From IMG/VR virus record IMGVR_UViG_2908572912_000002: a DNA stretch of 30,084 bases. One strand, 5' to 3'. Each line of letters opens with the position of its first letter. The stretch's first letter is position 1. This document shows positions 2,766 to 27,192 of the stretch, in pieces. This DNA is from a virus. Its lineage: Duplodnaviria; Heunggongvirae; Uroviricota; Caudoviricetes. The translations under genes and the position numbers were made by a program. The notes below the pieces were generated by a model. The model saw only the letters and a list, made by a program, of their open reading frames with translations, ran no database searches and had not been told where the DNA came from.

Positions 2766-3453
2766 TGGAGCACCTCAAAAACACCATCATACACTAAATC
2801 AGTAAGTTGGCAGCATCACCAGCCTTCTTGAGGCTACCACCTGTTTTCAGGTGTCATTCAGACGTGATTTGCCCCAGATTGGGAAAGCACGCTTTTTTCT
2901 CAGCTATCGTCCTCTTATTTTGCCGTTACATTTCTTTTTGCACTCTAATGATTAATTTACAATAATAATATCGGTAATTATTGAGTAATAATAAATTGAT
3001 TATTGCAAATGTAATTTAATTCCATCTTCGCGTTATATTCCAATCTTTAATCTCCGCATGGAACAAGTTGCATGCGTGACTATATTAAGACAACTTATAA
3101 CCACCAAAACATTTGCTTTGCAAGCAAAAACAGTGACCATTGACTCTAAGAAAATTCCGATCTATTGTTAGGGTCATCAAAGTTACTTAACAGTATTCCG
3201 AAATGAAAATACAAAGCAAGCTAATTGTCTTATTAAACATTATTATTGCATTTATATTATTTGAGCTTTTAGCTCAAAAATTTGGTTTGAGTACATTATT
3301 TTAAAGCAAGATAAACAATATCGGGCACTCTAGTTTTTATAATTAACAATTAAACGTCCATGAAATGTTATTTACTTTTCTTCGCTATTGTCATATCTTA
3401 ATATAGTGGCTTACGCCACTCTACTTTCATCACATTTTGTACGTTTATGTACT

Positions 3454-3486
3454 CGCCATGAAGCTCTTTCATGGCGATTTTTTATT
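3454..3486 (+). terminator. Rho-independent terminator (9-bp stem cgccatgaa/ttcatggcg, 5-nt loop, then attttttatt)
   Basis: Perfect inverted repeat 3454-3476 followed by T-tract; lies in an ORF-poor AT-rich region. Confidence 0.6.
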
Positions 3487-3569
3487 CTTAATCCAAGAAC
3501 ATACTCCCTACCTATAGCAAAATCACTTTTTTAACAAAAGAATAACGTATTTAGGTAATCATTACGAAT

Positions 3570-3749
3570 TTACCCTATAGGTGCTACTGGCCATTCAATA
3601 TCCGGTGCAGTTGTTGTATTAACACGGTTCAGCAACACCCGATACTTCTTCCAGGCTTCCAGCAACGAAGTTTCTTCCTCCGTTGCGATTTCCAGCTCAA
3701 CAACAGTCTGAACGTACCAGGAACAGCCTCCTTCAGGGCTTGAAGGATA
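3570..3749 (-). pseudogene. tfa: tail fiber assembly protein (Tfa) 3' remnant, in frame directly after the stf stop codon
   Basis: Minus-strand translation after the stf TGA: ...[42 protein letters not shown], the conserved C-terminal motif of Tfa proteins (TfaR-like); no start codon. Confidence 0.55.
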
Positions 3750-13038: not shown

Positions 13039-13563
13039 ATGAAGTTATGGCCTGTGTTGACTGGCATTGCACTCTCTTTCACTCTTATAGCATGTAAGGC
13101 CCCGACACCACCTAAAGGTGTGCAGCCGATTACAAATTTTGACGCCAACCGCTACCTCGGAAAATGGTATGAAATAGCTCGCCTCGAGAACCGGTTCGAA
13201 CGTGGTCTGGAACAGGTCAGCGCTACTTATGGAAAACGGAACGACGGAGGGATTCGTGTACTTAACCGTGGATACGATCCAACGAAAAATAAATGGAGCG
13301 AGAGCGAAGGTAAAGCATACTTTACTGGAGATACTAAAACTGCAGCATTGAAGGTTTCGTTTTTTGGCCCCTTCTATGGTGGCTATAATGTAATCAAACT
13401 GGATGATGAGTATAAGTATGCTCTTGTCAGTGGTCCGAACAGAGAATACCTATGGATTCTGGCAAGGACCCCAACTATTCCAGATAAAGTAAAAGCAGAC
13501 TATGTGCGAACCGCTCAAAAGTTGGGATTCAATGTCAATGAATTATTATGGGTTAAACAATAA
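13039..13563 (+). CDS. outer-membrane lipocalin lipoprotein (Blc-like)
   Basis: 174-aa ORF; lipobox LIAC; NFDANRYLGKWYEIARLENRFERGLE...GKAYFTG...ALKVSFFGPFYGGYNVI...YLWILARTP closely resembles E. coli Blc. Confidence 0.85.
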   Translation: MKLWPVLTGIALSFTLIACKAPTPPKGVQPITNFDANRYLGKWYEIARLENRFERGLEQVSATYGKRNDGGIRVLNRGYDPTKNKWSESEGKAYFTGDTKTAALKVSFFGPFYGGYNVIKLDDEYKYALVSGPNREYLWILARTPTIPDKVKADYVRTAQKLGFNVNELLWVKQ

Positions 13564-14968: not shown

Positions 14969-15131
14969 GATTCCTCCTTGCTGCCAGTCGCAACCATTTT
15001 TTATCAACCAGGCTAGCGGTATATCCGAGCAGTGTTGGTATTTCGGATGGCTTCAGCTCAGGCTTACGCTTACGACGATTTGATACTCTGTAGATGTGTC
15101 CGTTCATGACACGAATAAGCGGTGTAGCCAT
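14961..15131 (-). CDS. ninE: NinE-like small basic protein (56 aa; below the ORF-track cutoff)
   Basis: Hand translation of minus strand: [56 protein letters not shown]; start overlaps ninB stop (TAATG), stop overlaps ybcO start. Confidence 0.6.
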   Translation of the reverse strand: MATPLIRVMNGHIYRVSNRRKRKPELKPSEIPTLLGYTASLVDKKWLRLAARRNHG

Positions 15132-15586
15132 TACGCCTCCTGCTTGTCGCGGAGCAGCTGGAACTCGCAGCTCTGCGGAATAGTCAGGTGGCAGCCAATA
15201 TTCATCGCCCAGGCTTCAACCTTACACAGGAAGACATACATCTCTCCGGTATCAAGATTGGAGGTATGACGTAATGACTGAATGGTGGTGATTTCACCGG
15301 TTACGACATCAACCAGTTCTTTGGTTTCATAACCGAGATAAGTGTGTTTGAGAGCATCTTTTACCCAAGCTGGAGTGGCGAACGTTTTACCCCTGCTGAT
15401 GAGGTATTCACTGATTTCGCTGTACCACATGTGGCTGAGTGCATTCTGGGAAAGACTGCGTCTCTCGCGCCACGGTTTAAGCACCATGCGAAAGCATTTG
15501 CCGTCCTCCAGATAAGGCTGGATCTGCCGACCGATAGCGGTGAAGTTACCGCGATGCAATTTGATACCATCTTGTGGGAGGTTCAC
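15131..15586 (-). CDS. ninB: NinB/Orf-family recombination mediator (YbcN-like)
   Basis: 151-aa ORF with ...[20 protein letters not shown]... resembling NinB family; first gene of a ninB-ninE-ybcO-rusA-Q block. Confidence 0.75.
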
Positions 15587-15792
15587 GCTTCACCTCCGCA
15601 GAGATCAAACGCTGGATGCAAAATATCGCAGGTGCATTTCTGCATCTGTGAATGGAGAAGAGAGGTTGGATTGTATGTGCGCATAAACGTCCCCGTTTAG
15701 CGCAGAAGTCACCGAAGTTGTTCAGGCTCCGATTACTTAATTATGGCAAGTTGATTATCGCAAATCAAAGGTTTTAATTGTGCTTTATTCTT

Positions 15793-15993
15793 TCAAGCGT
15801 TTCCTTCATACCAAAGCCTATAAAGTTTTTCTTCTTCGTTTGGGTTAATAGGCTCACCATGTTTTAATTTTTCAGTGTACAAAATTGTTGAACAAATCGC
15901 GGAAGTTAATCCAGTGATCGCCATCTGCCGCAGATCGGATTTTTGTGTCCCCCTCAACAGACGATCTCCCATCCATGTAATAATTGTATCCAT
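15793..15993 (-). CDS. hypothetical 66-aa protein
   Basis: ORF with in-frame upstream stop and SD-like aagaaggg; no recognisable family. Confidence 0.35.
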   Translation of the reverse strand: MDTIITWMGDRLLRGTQKSDLRQMAITGLTSAICSTILYTEKLKHGEPINPNEEEKLYRLWYEGNA

Positions 15994-16580
15994 GCTTCAG
16001 CCCTTCTTAGTAAATAGTGTGTAGGGCGACTGAAGGACCGAGTTTATGCTTTTTCGCATTGCTTTCAGTTAGTAGACCGGTATAGCACCGGAAACAATCC
16101 TACGGCAAATTGGTTGTCTGACCTCTCGGTTTTTCGTGCATTAACCGATACCCACTACAGTCTCGGCGAAAGCTGCACACCCCCAAGGTGTACTGGTAGC
16201 ACTCGGCACAGCCTAGCGCGCCACTTTCTTCTCACTATCCAGTCTAATTTTATCCCCTAGTCAGACACTCAGATGTAGTGCTCAGCAGCGGCATGCGGGG
16301 GAATACAAAAACTCGGACAAAATTGGGCCCTCCTTTTTGAATCACTCGCGGGGATGTAGTTATTAATACATGGGAAAAGATCTGTTTTCAAATCCAACAT
16401 TATATGGTTTCAATACCACGGGGTGGCTATGTGTTTCTCATTATTATTTACAATCTACTGTAATCGCTCCGAACGCAAATGCGTCAATACTCGAATCAAC
16501 TGATCATCCTGCCACGACTGAAATCTCAAATAGGCCGTTTCTCAAGTAAGAGATTTTGAATGCATTATTGGCTACTGAAA

Positions 16581-16604
16581 TAAAAAACCCAGCGCAAACT
16601 GGGT
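16581..16604 (-). terminator. Rho-independent terminator for the 164-aa secreted-protein gene
   Basis: Minus-strand hairpin acccag-tttgcg-ctgggt followed by TTTTTT, 19 nt after the ORF stop. Confidence 0.6.
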
Positions 16605-16622
16605 TCATATGAAATTTTTTTG

Positions 16623-17117
16623 TCATTTCCAATTGCAAGACTGTGAAATTTTTTCCACAACCTTATCAATCTCAGACAAGTCAAACTCAACTACTTGCAT
16701 AGTTGATCCATAAGGTTCAAACCCAAAAATAGCTTTTTTATGCTTAGCCAAGGTCTTTATAAATTGTATTGGTTGTGGAGCAAATGCAGAATCACCGCCT
16801 TCCCCACCTCCCCAAACACTCTTGACCGGCTTTCCGCCATCTAACCGCACTGTAATTCTTGGGTTGTCCGAACCCATATAATCATTGAATGATAAATAGG
16901 CATCTGTTTTGTTATCACTACAACGCAACACCAGTGAAGTTGCACGATCAGTACCTGCTTTGTTATATGAATCTGGTGATAAATTAAGAGCCACAAAGTC
17001 AGTCTGGTCAGTCATTTTATTTATCTCAGACTTTGTTATCCACGGCCCTAACTTCTCTACACCAGCATTTGCTGTAAACGAGGCACTTATAACAAAGGCT
17101 AAAATAAATTTTCTCAT
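16623..17117 (-). CDS. hypothetical secreted/periplasmic protein with N-terminal signal peptide
   Basis: 164-aa ORF MRKFILAFVISASFTANAGV...; low-GC; lies in a foreign insert between truncated ren and ninB. Confidence 0.6.
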   Translation of the reverse strand: MRKFILAFVISASFTANAGVEKLGPWITKSEINKMTDQTDFVALNLSPDSYNKAGTDRATSLVLRCSDNKTDAYLSFNDYMGSDNPRITVRLDGGKPVKSVWGGGEGGDSAFAPQPIQFIKTLAKHKKAIFGFEPYGSTMQVVEFDLSEIDKVVEKISQSCNWK

Positions 17118-17263
17118 AACCCTATCTCCTTGGATTCAAAGAACTAAATATTATCAAGTCTCTTGCCACTAGAAAACCCACTTTATTTCCAAACTCTGAT
17201 GGCATTCCTGAAAATCCGCTTCATACTCACTTGCCCCGCCCTATCATCCTGAGTAGCTAACCG

Positions 17264-17437
17264 TTAAACAAACGTTCGCCAGACCTTACCATCAATGACC
17301 AGGATTCCTGCCCGCGTCATTTTTGCCGCAGCCTTATTTATGCTGGTTAATGTCACACCTGTTGTCGCAGCAACGTCCGGCGCACAGAAGCTCTTGTGCG
17401 TCTCCAGATAATGAATAATTGCCTCTTTGCCCGTCAT
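17264..17437 (-). pseudogene. ren: ren, truncated after ~53 aa
   Basis: Hand translation MTGKEAIIHYLETHKSFCAPDVAATTGVTLTSINKAAAKMTRAGILVIDGKVWRTFV*; matches lambda Ren N-terminus then ends; start overlaps P stop. Confidence 0.7.
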
Positions 17438-18135
17438 ACAGTTGCTCCTTTCAGTCCGAACTTCGCTTTGATTTCTGCGATCTTCGCCAGAGCCTGAGCC
17501 CGGTTAAGTGGTCTACCGCCCATGACAGGAAGTTGTTTTACTGGTTCAGGTATAGCCTCACCACGGTTAATTCGTGCGGTCATACAGGACAGTTCATCGG
17601 CAGCCTTGCGCCGTAATTCCGCGTCAGTCAACGCATTGGCCCGCATGTTCTGATACAGGTTGGTAACCAGCCAGTAGTGCGCGTTTGATTTCCACGGATA
17701 AGACTCTGCATCCGGATACAGCCCGCGCTTCCGGCAATACTCGTAAACCATATCAACCAGCTCGCTGGCGTTTGGCAGCCCGGCGGTAACGGATGCTTCT
17801 TCCCGGCACCAGGCGACAAACTGCCCGGGTGATGGCAGGAATGGTCGATTCTGCCGACGGGCTACGCGCATTCCTGCGTTAACCTGTTCCATTGTGGTGA
17901 TCCCGTTTTCCCGGAAAGCCAGAACCCACTGGCGGCGGATTTCGTTCAGTTCGTTCTGGTCACGGTTAGCCAGACTCGCCGGGAAAGTTGCCAGTAACTG
18001 GCTGAACACACCGTTGATGATCTGCGCTACCTGCTGTACCTGCGGCTTTTCGTCGTACTGTTCCGGCATGTTGTTGGCGATCCGACGCATCTGCTCACGG
18101 TCAAAGTTAACCATCTGTGCGGCGATGTTTTTCAT
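17434..18135 (-). CDS. P: replication protein P (DnaB helicase loader)
   Basis: 233-aa MKNIAAQMVNFDREQMRRIANNMPEQYDEKPQVQQVAQIINGVFSQLLATFPASLANRDQNELNEIRRQWVLAFRENG... matches lambda P. Confidence 0.95.
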   Translation of the reverse strand: MKNIAAQMVNFDREQMRRIANNMPEQYDEKPQVQQVAQIINGVFSQLLATFPASLANRDQNELNEIRRQWVLAFRENGITTMEQVNAGMRVARRQNRPFLPSPGQFVAWCREEASVTAGLPNASELVDMVYEYCRKRGLYPDAESYPWKSNAHYWLVTNLYQNMRANALTDAELRRKAADELSCMTARINRGEAIPEPVKQLPVMGGRPLNRAQALAKIAEIKAKFGLKGATV

Positions 18136-19031
18136 AGATCCACCCCGTAAATCCAGTCTGTGTTTGTCAGGTCGAGTTTTGGTTTGCTGGCTGTCACGAC
18201 TGCCTGTTGCTTGTTACGGTTGATTTCGAGCTGGGTCCACTTGTCGCGGAGTTTGGCCGGACTAAGCACGTTACCGGACCAGAAGTTGTCCTGGCATGCC
18301 CAGCGGAACAGCACGCACATGTCGCGGTGGTTACGTCCGTCACGTTCACGCATCAGGCGGATATCGTTAGCCCACCCTGCAAAATTCGGTTTTCTGGCTG
18401 ATGGCGCGATGGTCTTCACCATGTCAAACATCCACTCTGCGGCGGTCAGGTCTTCTGCTGTCCCCCACTTGCTGCCGCTCTGAATTGCAGCATCCGGTTT
18501 CACCACAGAAAGATCGTTTTCTGGCTGGTCAGAGGATTCGCCAGAATTCTCTGACGAATAATCTTTTCTTTTTTCTTTTGTAATAGTGTCTTTTGTGTCC
18601 CTCTGTTTTGAGGGATAGCAATCCCCCAATTTGAGGGATGTTTTATCCCTCGTTTTAGGGGATTTTCCCTCGTTTTGAGGGATACACCATTCTGAGATGT
18701 TTTTATTTGGTCCAAACATGCCGCCTTGCTGCTTGATAATATTCATTCTGACGAGTTCTAACTTGGCTTCATTGCACCGTTTGACGGGTAACTTTGTAAT
18801 CTCGCTAAGTTGAGAATCGGTGATTCTGTCCATTGGTTTATTCCACCCATAGGTTTTACGCAGAATGGCAAGCAGCACTTTAAACTGTCGCTTGGTCAGA
18901 TCTGCGCCCGAATAAGCCTCAAGCAGCATATTTGATAGTCTGGCGTAACCATCATCGAGATCTGCCACATTACGCTCCTGTCCGGCAAAGTTACCTCTGC
19001 CGAAGTTGAGTATTTTTGCTGTATTTGTCAT
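18132..19031 (-). CDS. O: replication initiator O
   Basis: 299-aa MTNTAKILNFGRGNFAGQERNVADLDDGYARLSNMLLEAYSGADLTKRQFKVLLAILRKTYGWNKPMDRITDSQ... matches lambda O; contains ori iterons. Confidence 0.95.
   Translation of the reverse strand: MTNTAKILNFGRGNFAGQERNVADLDDGYARLSNMLLEAYSGADLTKRQFKVLLAILRKTYGWNKPMDRITDSQLSEITKLPVKRCNEAKLELVRMNIIKQQGGMFGPNKNISEWCIPQNEGKSPKTRDKTSLKLGDCYPSKQRDTKDTITKEKRKDYSSENSGESSDQPENDLSVVKPDAAIQSGSKWGTAEDLTAAEWMFDMVKTIAPSARKPNFAGWANDIRLMRERDGRNHRDMCVLFRWACQDNFWSGNVLSPAKLRDKWTQLEINRNKQQAVVTASKPKLDLTNTDWIYGVDL
18556..18684. repeat. ori: ori-lambda: four ~19-bp O-binding iterons (tccctc...gagggat) plus adjacent AT-rich unwinding region, inside O
   Basis: Iterons at ~18598-18617, 18621-18639, 18644-18662, 18666-18684; AT-rich tract 18556-18596. 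Confidence 0.85.
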
Positions 19032-22943: not shown

Positions 22944-23015
22944 GCGCGGCGTTACCGCATACCAATAACGCTTCACTCGAGGCGTTTTTCGTTATGTATA
23001 AATAAGGAGCACACC

Positions 23016-23180
23016 ATGCAATATGCCATTGCAGGGTGGCCTGTTGCTGGCTGCCCTTCCGAATCTTTACTTGAACGAATCACCCGTAAATTACGTGACG
23101 GATGGAAACGCCTTATCGACATACTTAATCAGCCAGGAGTCCCAAAAAATGGATCAAACACTTATGGCTATCCAGACTAA
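23016..23180 (+). CDS. cIII: CIII (FtsH inhibitor protecting CII)
   Basis: Hand translation [54 protein letters not shown] (54 aa). Confidence 0.85.
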   Translation: MQYAIAGWPVAGCPSESLLERITRKLRDGWKRLIDILNQPGVPKNGSNTYGYPD

Positions 23181-27104: not shown

Positions 27105-27192
27105 ACCCAATATTACATAACAATCCTCGCACTCGCGGGGATTTATTTTATCTGAACTCGCTACGGCGGGTTTTGTTTTATGGAGATGATAA

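Follow-up and report, generated by a model that had tools for sequence, protein, structure and literature searches.

What lies between ren and ybcN, the gene at the ninB position, in the lambda-like prophage of IMG/VR record IMGVR_UViG_2908572912_000002, and did it arrive there as a single piece? In this stretch of 30,084 nucleotides (nt), hereafter the window, the early-right operon occupies the minus strand in the order O (18132-19031), P (17434-18135), ren, the interval considered here, ylcH, ybcN, ninE, ybcO, rusA, ylcG and Q. A first-pass annotation had read the interval as one foreign insert of 1.7 kb that truncates ren and brings in a secreted-protein gene, and had left as empty a stretch (15994-16622, 629 bp) in which, as we can confirm, neither strand holds an open reading frame (ORF) of 60 or more amino acids (aa). 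Our analyses indicate that this stretch is not empty, since it contains the 3' stub of an antirepressor gene and, very probably, the gene of a conserved structured RNA of ~331 nt folding into two domains (16025-16355, minus strand), as delimited by alignments, RNAalifold and a covariance model. The cargo slot and its secreted-protein cassette are ordinary, and the hidden RNA gene is the main value of the locus.

Most of the ORF-free stretch (query positions 80-629, ~16543 to 15994) is 95% identical to other Escherichia coli DNA, in which 460 bases without annotation come after an annotated antirepressor stub; a part of ~330 nt also has a counterpart in Klebsiella phage Kp4856-1, at 78% identity. 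In this phage the RNA is preceded by a gene for a dATP/dGTP pyrophosphohydrolase-domain protein and followed by one for a 183-aa protein, neighbours unrelated to those found in E. coli. Substitutions along the RNA leave invariant blocks alternating with variable ones, a pattern that is not codon-like. Two pattern scans located the RNA at 65 viral-contig loci, and a metagenome scan added 26 further copies; 32 distinct sequences were distinguished, 77-100% identical to the window copy, and the full-length copies all cover reference positions 3 to ~333. A covariance model built from the alignment recovers the window copy at 16018-16360 (minus strand) with 413.6 bits.

The RNA is present, always as a single copy and never annotated, in 158 of 5,426 complete E. 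coli genomes (~3%), where the copies are 95-100% identical. Isolated phages carrying it include IdasGreatGrand, Turner and Klebsiella phage Kp4856-1, and its distribution so far comprises lambdoid phages of E. coli and Klebsiella, prophages, and contigs of unknown host. Species-representative genomes, screened by an 18-mer scan and the covariance model, yielded no copy: ten 18-mer matches were attributed to chance, four of them scoring ~9 bits with the model and the other six giving no match. The plasmids in PLSDB likewise contained none. Two altered copies were also encountered, one with an internal deletion (L055, 14186-14457), whose 272 nt still span the whole model, and another replaced from about the GCAAUGCGAAAA hairpin onward (L046, 3061-3402); as natural variants, they could show which parts of the RNA are dispensable.

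No catalogued family accounts for the element. At the gathering threshold of Rfam 15 the only match in the window was the lambda cIII thermoregulator, and at permissive thresholds the window copy and two divergent copies gave a best E value of 0.12, on terminator-like sequence; a scan for tRNA and tmRNA found none. No description of the RNA came up in literature searches, whether by topic or by literal sequence string, and the Minerva preprint does not cover it. The Pas small RNAs (Zhu et al. 2026), whose genes lie close to Q and the lysis genes, have no relation to it.

The evidence for a conserved fold comes from MAFFT alignments of 24 and of 32 sequences. RNAalifold predicts 82 pairs arranged in two domains, 13 of these pairs being changed on both sides; AUCCCC/GGGGAU closes a 5' domain of ~100 nt and GACUGG/CCAGUC a 3' domain of ~215 nt. 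Standard pairs fill 98.3% of the cells with 24 sequences and 94.9% with 32, the latter figure counting an extra hairpin one column out of register; when placed in register this hairpin is 91% paired, displays U-A, A-U and C-G at one position, and contributes two more compensatory pairs. Sliding the 3' partners by 1-3 columns left 33-49% (24 sequences) or 35-47% (32 sequences) of the cells paired, and the covariation score was 0.189 against 0.040-0.060 when slid in the smaller alignment and 0.198 against 0.048-0.057 in the larger one. None of 500 shuffles reached the observed paired fraction or covariation score in either alignment. Among the 1,963 paired cells of the 24-sequence alignment, 238 are G-U pairs, which would be mismatches on the opposite strand; this fixes the strand, and the RNA is read in the operon direction.

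The fold is preceded in the window by a promoter-like box (TTGAAA, a 17-nt spacer and TATTAA; 16363-16391, minus strand) whose spacing is conserved across lineages. In every lineage a -35 element (TTGAAw or TTGTAT) and an A/T-rich -10-like box stand 17 nt apart and end 7 nt before the invariant ATCCCC, and this position holds while the spacer and the upstream genes vary. Most non-E. coli lineages have, a few nt after the fold, an intrinsic terminator with a covarying stem. An inverted repeat, CCATA-N3-5-TATGG, abuts the -35 element in several non-E. coli lineages (L054, L062 and others) and is a possible operator site, at which a regulator could act on the RNA promoter; at the same position the E. 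coli type has only CCATATAATG.

Several observations weigh against a real and independently transcribed RNA. The sequences are related and mosaic, so that the shuffle controls overstate significance and speak of consistency rather than of probability, and the compensatory changes derive from about five or six lineages. Folded singly, the sequence is no more stable than its shuffles on either strand (z = -0.72), so that stability alone gives no support. The -10 box is imperfect by the promoter rule, and a simple consensus scan missed the promoter; the copy in the window, like the E. coli type in general, has no terminator of its own; and the transcription of all parts of the interval is a prediction from sequence. 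The unremarkable fold stability, the 95-100% identity among E. coli copies, and the composition of the first ~170 nt after the 164-aa secreted-protein gene, namely a terminator and the antirepressor stub, would suit another view, in which the ORF-free stretch is decaying pseudogene DNA without function and owes its conservation to recent common ancestry. We consider such decay improbable. Copies only 77-83% identical keep the 331-nt boundaries though both neighbours change, their variable helices keep pairing (13-15 compensatory pairs, with 95-98% of cells paired as against 33-49% when slid), neither codon-like substitutions nor a conserved long ORF are found, and the promoter box and the terminators sit exactly at the two ends. 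Taking both sides together, we regard it as highly probable that the element is a real structured RNA transcribed independently of its neighbours.

A further question is whether this RNA controls the gene that follows it. In most non-E. coli lineages the terminator comes at once, and the ribosome-binding site of a small gene stands 25-40 nt further on. The product of this gene has 183 aa, 95 aa, or 178 aa with two transmembrane segments. The E. coli type lacks the terminator, and its RNA continues into a 118-aa gene. Moreover, the closing helix has AGUCGCC at its 3' end, a sequence that by eye could pair with the 3' arm of the terminator. These features would be expected of a cis-acting leader, either an attenuator or a riboswitch-like sensor, governing read-through into the downstream gene, an explanation that we hold to be possible but doubtful. 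What follows the RNA is a gene of one of at least four unrelated families, encoding the 118-, 178-, 183- and 95-aa proteins, without known common function; the backbone gene for DUF1367 directly follows the RNA in the L054 lineage; the downstream gene of the window is broken and its RNA intact; and the proposed anti-terminator pairing is a candidate picked out by eye. No defence model of PADLOC matched any of the four downstream proteins. The 183-aa protein of Kp4856-1, encoded after the RNA terminator (L004, 3385-3936), includes the sequence RHNLLH, which resembles the Rx4H motif of HEPN RNases; a reading as such an RNase was dropped, as there was no Pfam or PADLOC match.

Within the 5' domain, a perfect Shine-Dalgarno sequence (AAGGAGG) stands 7 nt before a UUG that opens a frame of 19 codons (16234-16293, minus strand), reading MSEFLYSPACRCGALHLSV in most E. 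coli copies. The Shine-Dalgarno, its spacing, the UUG and the position of the stop are conserved in all lineages, as they would be if the element were the gene of a small protein. This interpretation appears to us very improbable, because six consecutive codons show no synonymous change between lineages that differ by ~20% elsewhere, the substitutions seen in the frame are for the most part non-synonymous and fall in paired columns (helix 73-81/90-97), the allele of the window, which is common to several genomes, stops after 12 codons, and the frame accounts for 60 of the 331 conserved nucleotides. The lack of synonymous variation, the location of changes in paired columns and the early stop together imply a constraint acting at the RNA level, and the Shine-Dalgarno/UUG site may serve in binding or pairing instead of being translated.

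Most likely, then, the RNA is protein-binding or regulatory, acting in trans or gating the variable downstream gene; between these options it is probably not a cis gate but a trans-acting molecule, and probably a protein-binding one. A CsrB-like sponge was dismissed, as the ~4-5 GGA motifs seen by eye in ~335 nt compare with ~5 expected by chance. Targets complementary to the RNA were limited, within the window, to a single 13-mer, involving the 5' end of the RNA and judged fortuitous, that forms part of an unrelated terminator-like hairpin, AATCCTCGCactcGCGGGGATTtatttt (27125-27150, plus strand), after a 93-aa gene of the left operon. A more ambitious proposal, to which we assign a low probability, is that the RNA is the founding member of a new phage-borne class that marks the 5' edge of a slot for swapped-in genes and serves as sensor or gate for whatever small accessory gene stands behind it, be it that of the two-transmembrane-segment protein, the 183-aa protein or the 118-aa protein, or, alternatively, binds and redirects in trans a protein of the host or of a rival phage. 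If true, it would amount to an RNA-controlled cassette for exchanging effectors, with a logic like that of retrons or type III toxin-antitoxin systems and without reverse transcriptase or repeats.

Type III toxin-antitoxin systems have the ToxIN architecture, in which the antitoxin RNA consists of tandem short repeats processed by the toxin. Several lineages of the present RNA share with them the order promoter, RNA, intrinsic terminator and small protein gene. In contrast to the antitoxins, however, the window RNA appears in the alignment as a single complex, non-repetitive fold (no dedicated repeat search was made), and the downstream proteins are unrelated to one another and to ToxN, AbiEii and CptN, one lineage having no such gene at all. 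The RNA also resembles large orphan structured RNAs linked to phages or prophages, such as ROOL and GOLLD (10.1101/2024.12.08.627333), in being a long, multi-helix, covarying RNA of temperate phages with variable neighbours; it differs from them in its smaller size (~331 nt), and it matches their Rfam families neither in sequence nor in structure.

Upstream of the RNA stands the secreted-protein gene that the first-pass annotation had recognised, a 164-aa VasI/TagO-like cargo gene (16623-17117, minus strand) identified by its ORF, by PHROG 1848 and by PF11319, with a Sec-type signal peptide that by eye reads MRKFILAFVISASFTANA and ends before GVEK. The description of this gene as a self-contained cassette with its own terminator also holds. 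The terminator (GAACCCAGTTTGCGCTGGGTTT then a T-run; 16576-16606, minus strand) was found by a terminator scan and has a 9-bp stem followed by the T-run at 16606-16585; a near-identical one follows the Salmonella homologue. On the upstream side, a candidate extended -10 element, TGaTAATAT (17148-17156, minus strand), was read from the sequence, at which a consensus promoter scan flagged no promoter. In Klebsiella, Pantoea and Salmonella prophages the corresponding cassettes show TGnTAGGAT at an equal distance, and ahead of it stands the terminator that belongs to the preceding gene; an extended -10-like element before the gene plus an intrinsic terminator after it recur in four independent contexts. 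With its promoter still a candidate, this predicted promoter-gene-terminator layout is that of a moron.

The protein belongs to PHROG 1848 over its full length (E 2.7e-70), and the one encoded by IdasGreatGrand is identical to it; the gene is absent from FDAARGOS_497, from DLP12 of K-12 and apparently from phage Turner. Relatives with 54-81% identity occur in Salmonella, Klebsiella, Enterobacter, Citrobacter, Pantoea, Serratia and Raoultella. At six Klebsiella, Pantoea and Salmonella loci the gene belongs to a siphovirus prophage and precedes the tape-measure gene by a short distance; the Xenorhabdus relative, too, is found a little upstream of a tape-measure gene. At the two Pantoea loci its immediate neighbours are the tail-chaperone gene (DUF6246) on one side and the tape-measure gene on the other, and at the Klebsiella and Salmonella loci the slot is shared with other small cargo genes. 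Two distant Pfam-VasI relatives are found alone in chromosomes. Still more remote relatives (25-28% identity) were noted in P2-like phages of E. coli and Klebsiella and in Pasteurella, Brucella and Citrobacter phages, in records such as NC_049343, NC_031264, KY271397 and OR544132, several of them labelled 'TagO' or 'type IV secretion protein'.

Two cysteines, Cys66 and Cys161, are invariant in 25 homologues. The AlphaFold2 model (predicted local distance difference test score, pLDDT, 78.6) superposes on the solved structure of IalB (PDB 3dtd) and has an IalB-like beta-sandwich, with a sequence identity of 9% to this Bartonella protein. No Pfam IalB match was obtained at E<=1, Foldseek of the model against the PDB gave nothing significant, the PDB sequence search found no solved relative, and the BFVD search returned uncharacterised phage proteins only. 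Judging from the remote phage relatives, the predicted, exported IalB-like fold is a widespread cargo of temperate phages.

RefSeq, through PGAP, names this protein 'type VI secretion system-associated protein TagO', and both it (by prediction) and VasI/TagO (PF11319, TIGR03360) are exported. The name agrees with an above-threshold but weak Pfam match to PF11319 (26.7 bits against a cutoff of 26.5), which covers the C-terminal 108 residues only. Even so, a role as an accessory component in type VI secretion is very improbable for this protein. It reaches 14.4 bits with the VasI equivalog TIGR03360, far short of the cutoff of 124.2, and measures 164 aa as against ~185-340; no type VI secretion genes were found near it in the window or at ten relative loci (seven in prophages, three alone in chromosomes); its more distant relatives are found in P2-like, Pasteurella, Brucella and Citrobacter phages; and the function of TagO/VasI itself is listed as 'Unknown' in a 2026 review (PMC13584744). 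The RefSeq name is therefore misleading for this phage-borne subfamily.

We infer instead that the protein is exported by Sec, disulfide-bonded, and acts in the envelope of the lysogen. Its most likely role, though one to which we give less than even odds, would be to protect the lysogen against the entry of incoming phage DNA or another envelope-directed attack, by analogy with the periplasmic or membrane proteins that other cargo genes of these slots encode, to which its predicted localisation and its position correspond. Against this proposal stand the facts that the function is transferred from localisation and position, that no PADLOC defence model matches the protein, and that its Pfam family has no known function (PMC13584744). 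The closest precedent is gene 15 of HK97, the first moron described, which confers superinfection exclusion (Juhala 2000, Cumby 2012; PMC3594210). The 164-aa gene is comparable to it in being self-contained, with its own terminator, a promoter-like element and a lower GC content than its neighbours, in being present or absent among related phages, in having a product predicted to be envelope-targeted, and in that its homologues occupy the gp15 slot, between tail chaperone and tape-measure. HK97 gp15, however, is a small YebO-like inner-membrane protein, to which the 164-aa protein is unrelated in sequence and fold, and the cassette of the window lies in the ren/nin slot.

Did the interval enter ren as one foreign segment? 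The ren gene does end early, as the first-pass annotation had noted: a 57-aa allele (17264-17437, minus strand), supported by its ORF and PHROG match, comprises the N-terminal winged-helix part of a lambda-type Ren and is ended by a nonsense codon, its product finishing in GKVWRTFV*. This product matches PHROG 7054, a 57-aa family, over its full length (E 5.5e-42), and the N-terminal part also matches PHROG 142, 'Ren-like exclusion protein'. Relative to the full-length, 100-aa ren of FDAARGOS_497, codon 58 is changed from TAC to TAA, and the DNA past the stop remains alignable, at lower identity, to ~17169, with further substitutions and a 1-bp deletion. Instead of a full-length Ren ORF (~96-100 aa), the locus has 57 open codons followed by a degenerate 3' remnant with extra stops and the 1-bp deletion (17169-17263, minus strand), recognised in the alignment and by PGAP, which in identical genomes annotates a ren pseudogene ('frameshifted; internal stop'). 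Since ren-homologous DNA extends ~95 bp beyond the stop codon, ren was not truncated by an insert; judging from these alignments, point mutations have made it a pseudogene, and its 3' remnant persists. A 57-aa allele with the identical end is found in the isolated phage IdasGreatGrand (PP925829), so that the 'truncated' ren is a stable pseudogene allele carried by viable phages too.

A single 1.7-kb insertion that truncated ren and brought new cargo could still claim the early end of ren, the low GC of the flanks of the interval, and the absence of the interval from lambda-type phages sharing the flanking backbone. The low GC reported for the whole is true of the two flanks (0.37-0.42, as against 0.50-0.58 in O and P) and not of the centre, 15900-16350, at 0.48-0.50. 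Such an insertion is highly improbable, and the least probable of the explanations considered here. In addition to the ren homology past the stop, FDAARGOS_497 carries the RNA, the antirepressor stub and the 118-aa gene together with emrE-ybcK and without the 164-aa gene, the latter gene stands alone in tail-region slots elsewhere, two deletion scars lie inside the interval, and the interval occurs in 56 genomes and, for the most part, in a phage.

Nor is the content novel, as had been supposed. At least 25 complete E. coli genomes share the 2.1-kb stretch with an identity of 98.6% or more, 56 of 5,426 contain most of it, an isolated phage carries the identical 164-aa gene, and the 164-, 66- and 57-aa products have full-length matches to existing PHROGs (1848, 8527 and 7054, respectively); the content of the interval is already sequenced and not new. 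Lambda-type sequence does not resume only at ninB either, as backbone common to phages 82, HK639, 4A7 and others begins at ~15769. The first-pass annotation was right that ren/ninB(ybcN) is a recurrent cargo slot, which differs among K-12 DLP12, FDAARGOS_497, IdasGreatGrand and the window, and that DLP12 holds other cargo, emrE-ylcJ-ybcK-ybcL-ybcM between renD and ylcH-ybcN. DLP12 shares with the window this same junction, the renD/ylcH/ybcN backbone and a periplasmic protein gene in the slot (ybcL), and differs in that the cargo genes are wholly different. FDAARGOS_497 represents an intermediate form: its slot holds emrE, ylcJ and ybcK, as in DLP12, followed by the antirepressor stub, the same non-coding stretch and an intact 118-aa gene, and it has no 164-aa gene, an arrangement which implies that the modules of the slot are separable.

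The internal history of the interval was approached by mapping the window against IdasGreatGrand and FDAARGOS_497. Window positions 17700-16545 correspond to positions 7-1161 of the IdasGreatGrand locus; the next 1,839 bp of the phage (1162-3000), which encode a 140-aa membrane protein and also contain a second ylcH-like segment and the greater part of an antirepressor gene of the BRO-N/P22AR-C type (202 aa), are missing from the window, and 16543-15804 then corresponds to 3001-3743. This first breakpoint falls between two diverged copies of the antirepressor 3' end and leaves a stub of the last ~29 codons plus stop (…SWQDDQLIRVLTHLRSERLQ*; 16455-16544, minus strand), placed by blastn and breakpoint mapping. 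Its blastn matches fall in genes for a 'P22AR C-terminal domain-containing protein', and the intact 202-aa Ant gene of IdasGreatGrand has both the BRO-N and P22AR-C domains, which the stub does not retain intact. A further 134 bp are missing between two copies of TTGGTATGAAG, after which the sequences are collinear; the scar of this deletion, an 11-bp direct repeat of TTGGTATGAAG (15804-15814, minus strand), is evident from BLAST segments overlapping by 11 nt and from the junction sequences. The second breakpoint shifts the frame of the 118-aa gene and thereby produces the 66-aa ORF (15793-15993, minus strand) that had been reported and is indeed present, a frameshifted deletion derivative of a 118-aa phage gene (PHROG 8527 for the 66-aa and PHROG 12412 for the 118-aa form).

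We infer from these comparisons that the differences of ~1.84 kb and 134 bp are losses in the window rather than gains in the phage. Against this, the polarity of the 1.84-kb difference could be reversed, with an insertion in the phage in place of a deletion here. The second ylcH-like segment of IdasGreatGrand is 83% identical to window positions 15607-15743, and with the second antirepressor 3' end it gives the slot the appearance of a partial tandem duplication, a substrate for deletion. The interval 15770-17168 thus comprises at least three separate modules and two deletion scars, and is quite probably a decayed stack of independent accessory cassettes rather than one foreign insertion.

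Read along the minus strand, such a stack would have the following composition. The ren gene would have been inactivated by point mutations, and after it would come a portable cassette made of a weak promoter, a ribosome-binding site, the 164-aa gene and its terminator. A 90-nt antirepressor stub, presumably left by the ~1.84-kb loss between two antirepressor 3' ends, would then precede the putatively autonomous gene for the two-domain structured RNA of ~331 nt. The 118-aa gene would have been shortened to 66 aa by the repeat-mediated deletion of 134 bp, and the backbone would resume with a promoter, ylcH and ybcN.

This backbone begins with a promoter-like sequence found by promoter scan upstream of ylcH (TTGATT, 17 nt and CATAAT with TG; 15740-15768, minus strand). 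The 80 bp at this promoter, common to many lambdoid phages, are annotated with a -35, a -10, a ribosome-binding site and a regulator-binding site in the record of phage 82 (X92588). Next come the backbone genes ylcH (33 aa; 15583-15684, minus strand), an ORF whose equivalent is annotated in K-12 and relatives, and ybcN (15131-15586, minus strand), a 'DNA base-flipping protein' at the NinB position, matched by NCBIfam NF007281 with 278 bits and annotated in relatives. The nin region of the window prophage is of the DLP12 type. In genomes 100% identical to it, the prophage lies between ybhC and ybhB, which we take to be the lambda attachment site, adjoining integrase and excisionase genes; these prophages have head and terminase genes and are therefore full-length, not DLP12-like remnants.

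Two features elsewhere in the window complete this picture. The lambda cIII thermoregulator (Rfam RF01804, 88.5 bits; 23003-23061, plus strand) confirms a lambda-type left operon on the plus strand. Another cargo gene, on the strand opposite to the early-right operon and just downstream of the Q antiterminator gene, encodes a 174-aa Blc-like lipocalin (Pfam Lipocalin_2, E 7e-44) with a lipoprotein-type signal sequence (13039-13563, plus strand); in strains TC24 and NCTC9080, whose prophages are otherwise identical, it is split by IS1 together with a captured corA segment.

As to the RNA itself, it represents a new family of a known general kind, the orphan structured RNAs carried by phages, which is not annotated and absent from Rfam. 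It sits in lambdoid phages of E. coli, one of the most intensively studied pairs of virus and host, where phages bearing it are available in culture collections and the host is tractable. If it regulates the downstream gene, or acts on factors of the host or of rival phages, the nin region would gain an RNA among its known actors.

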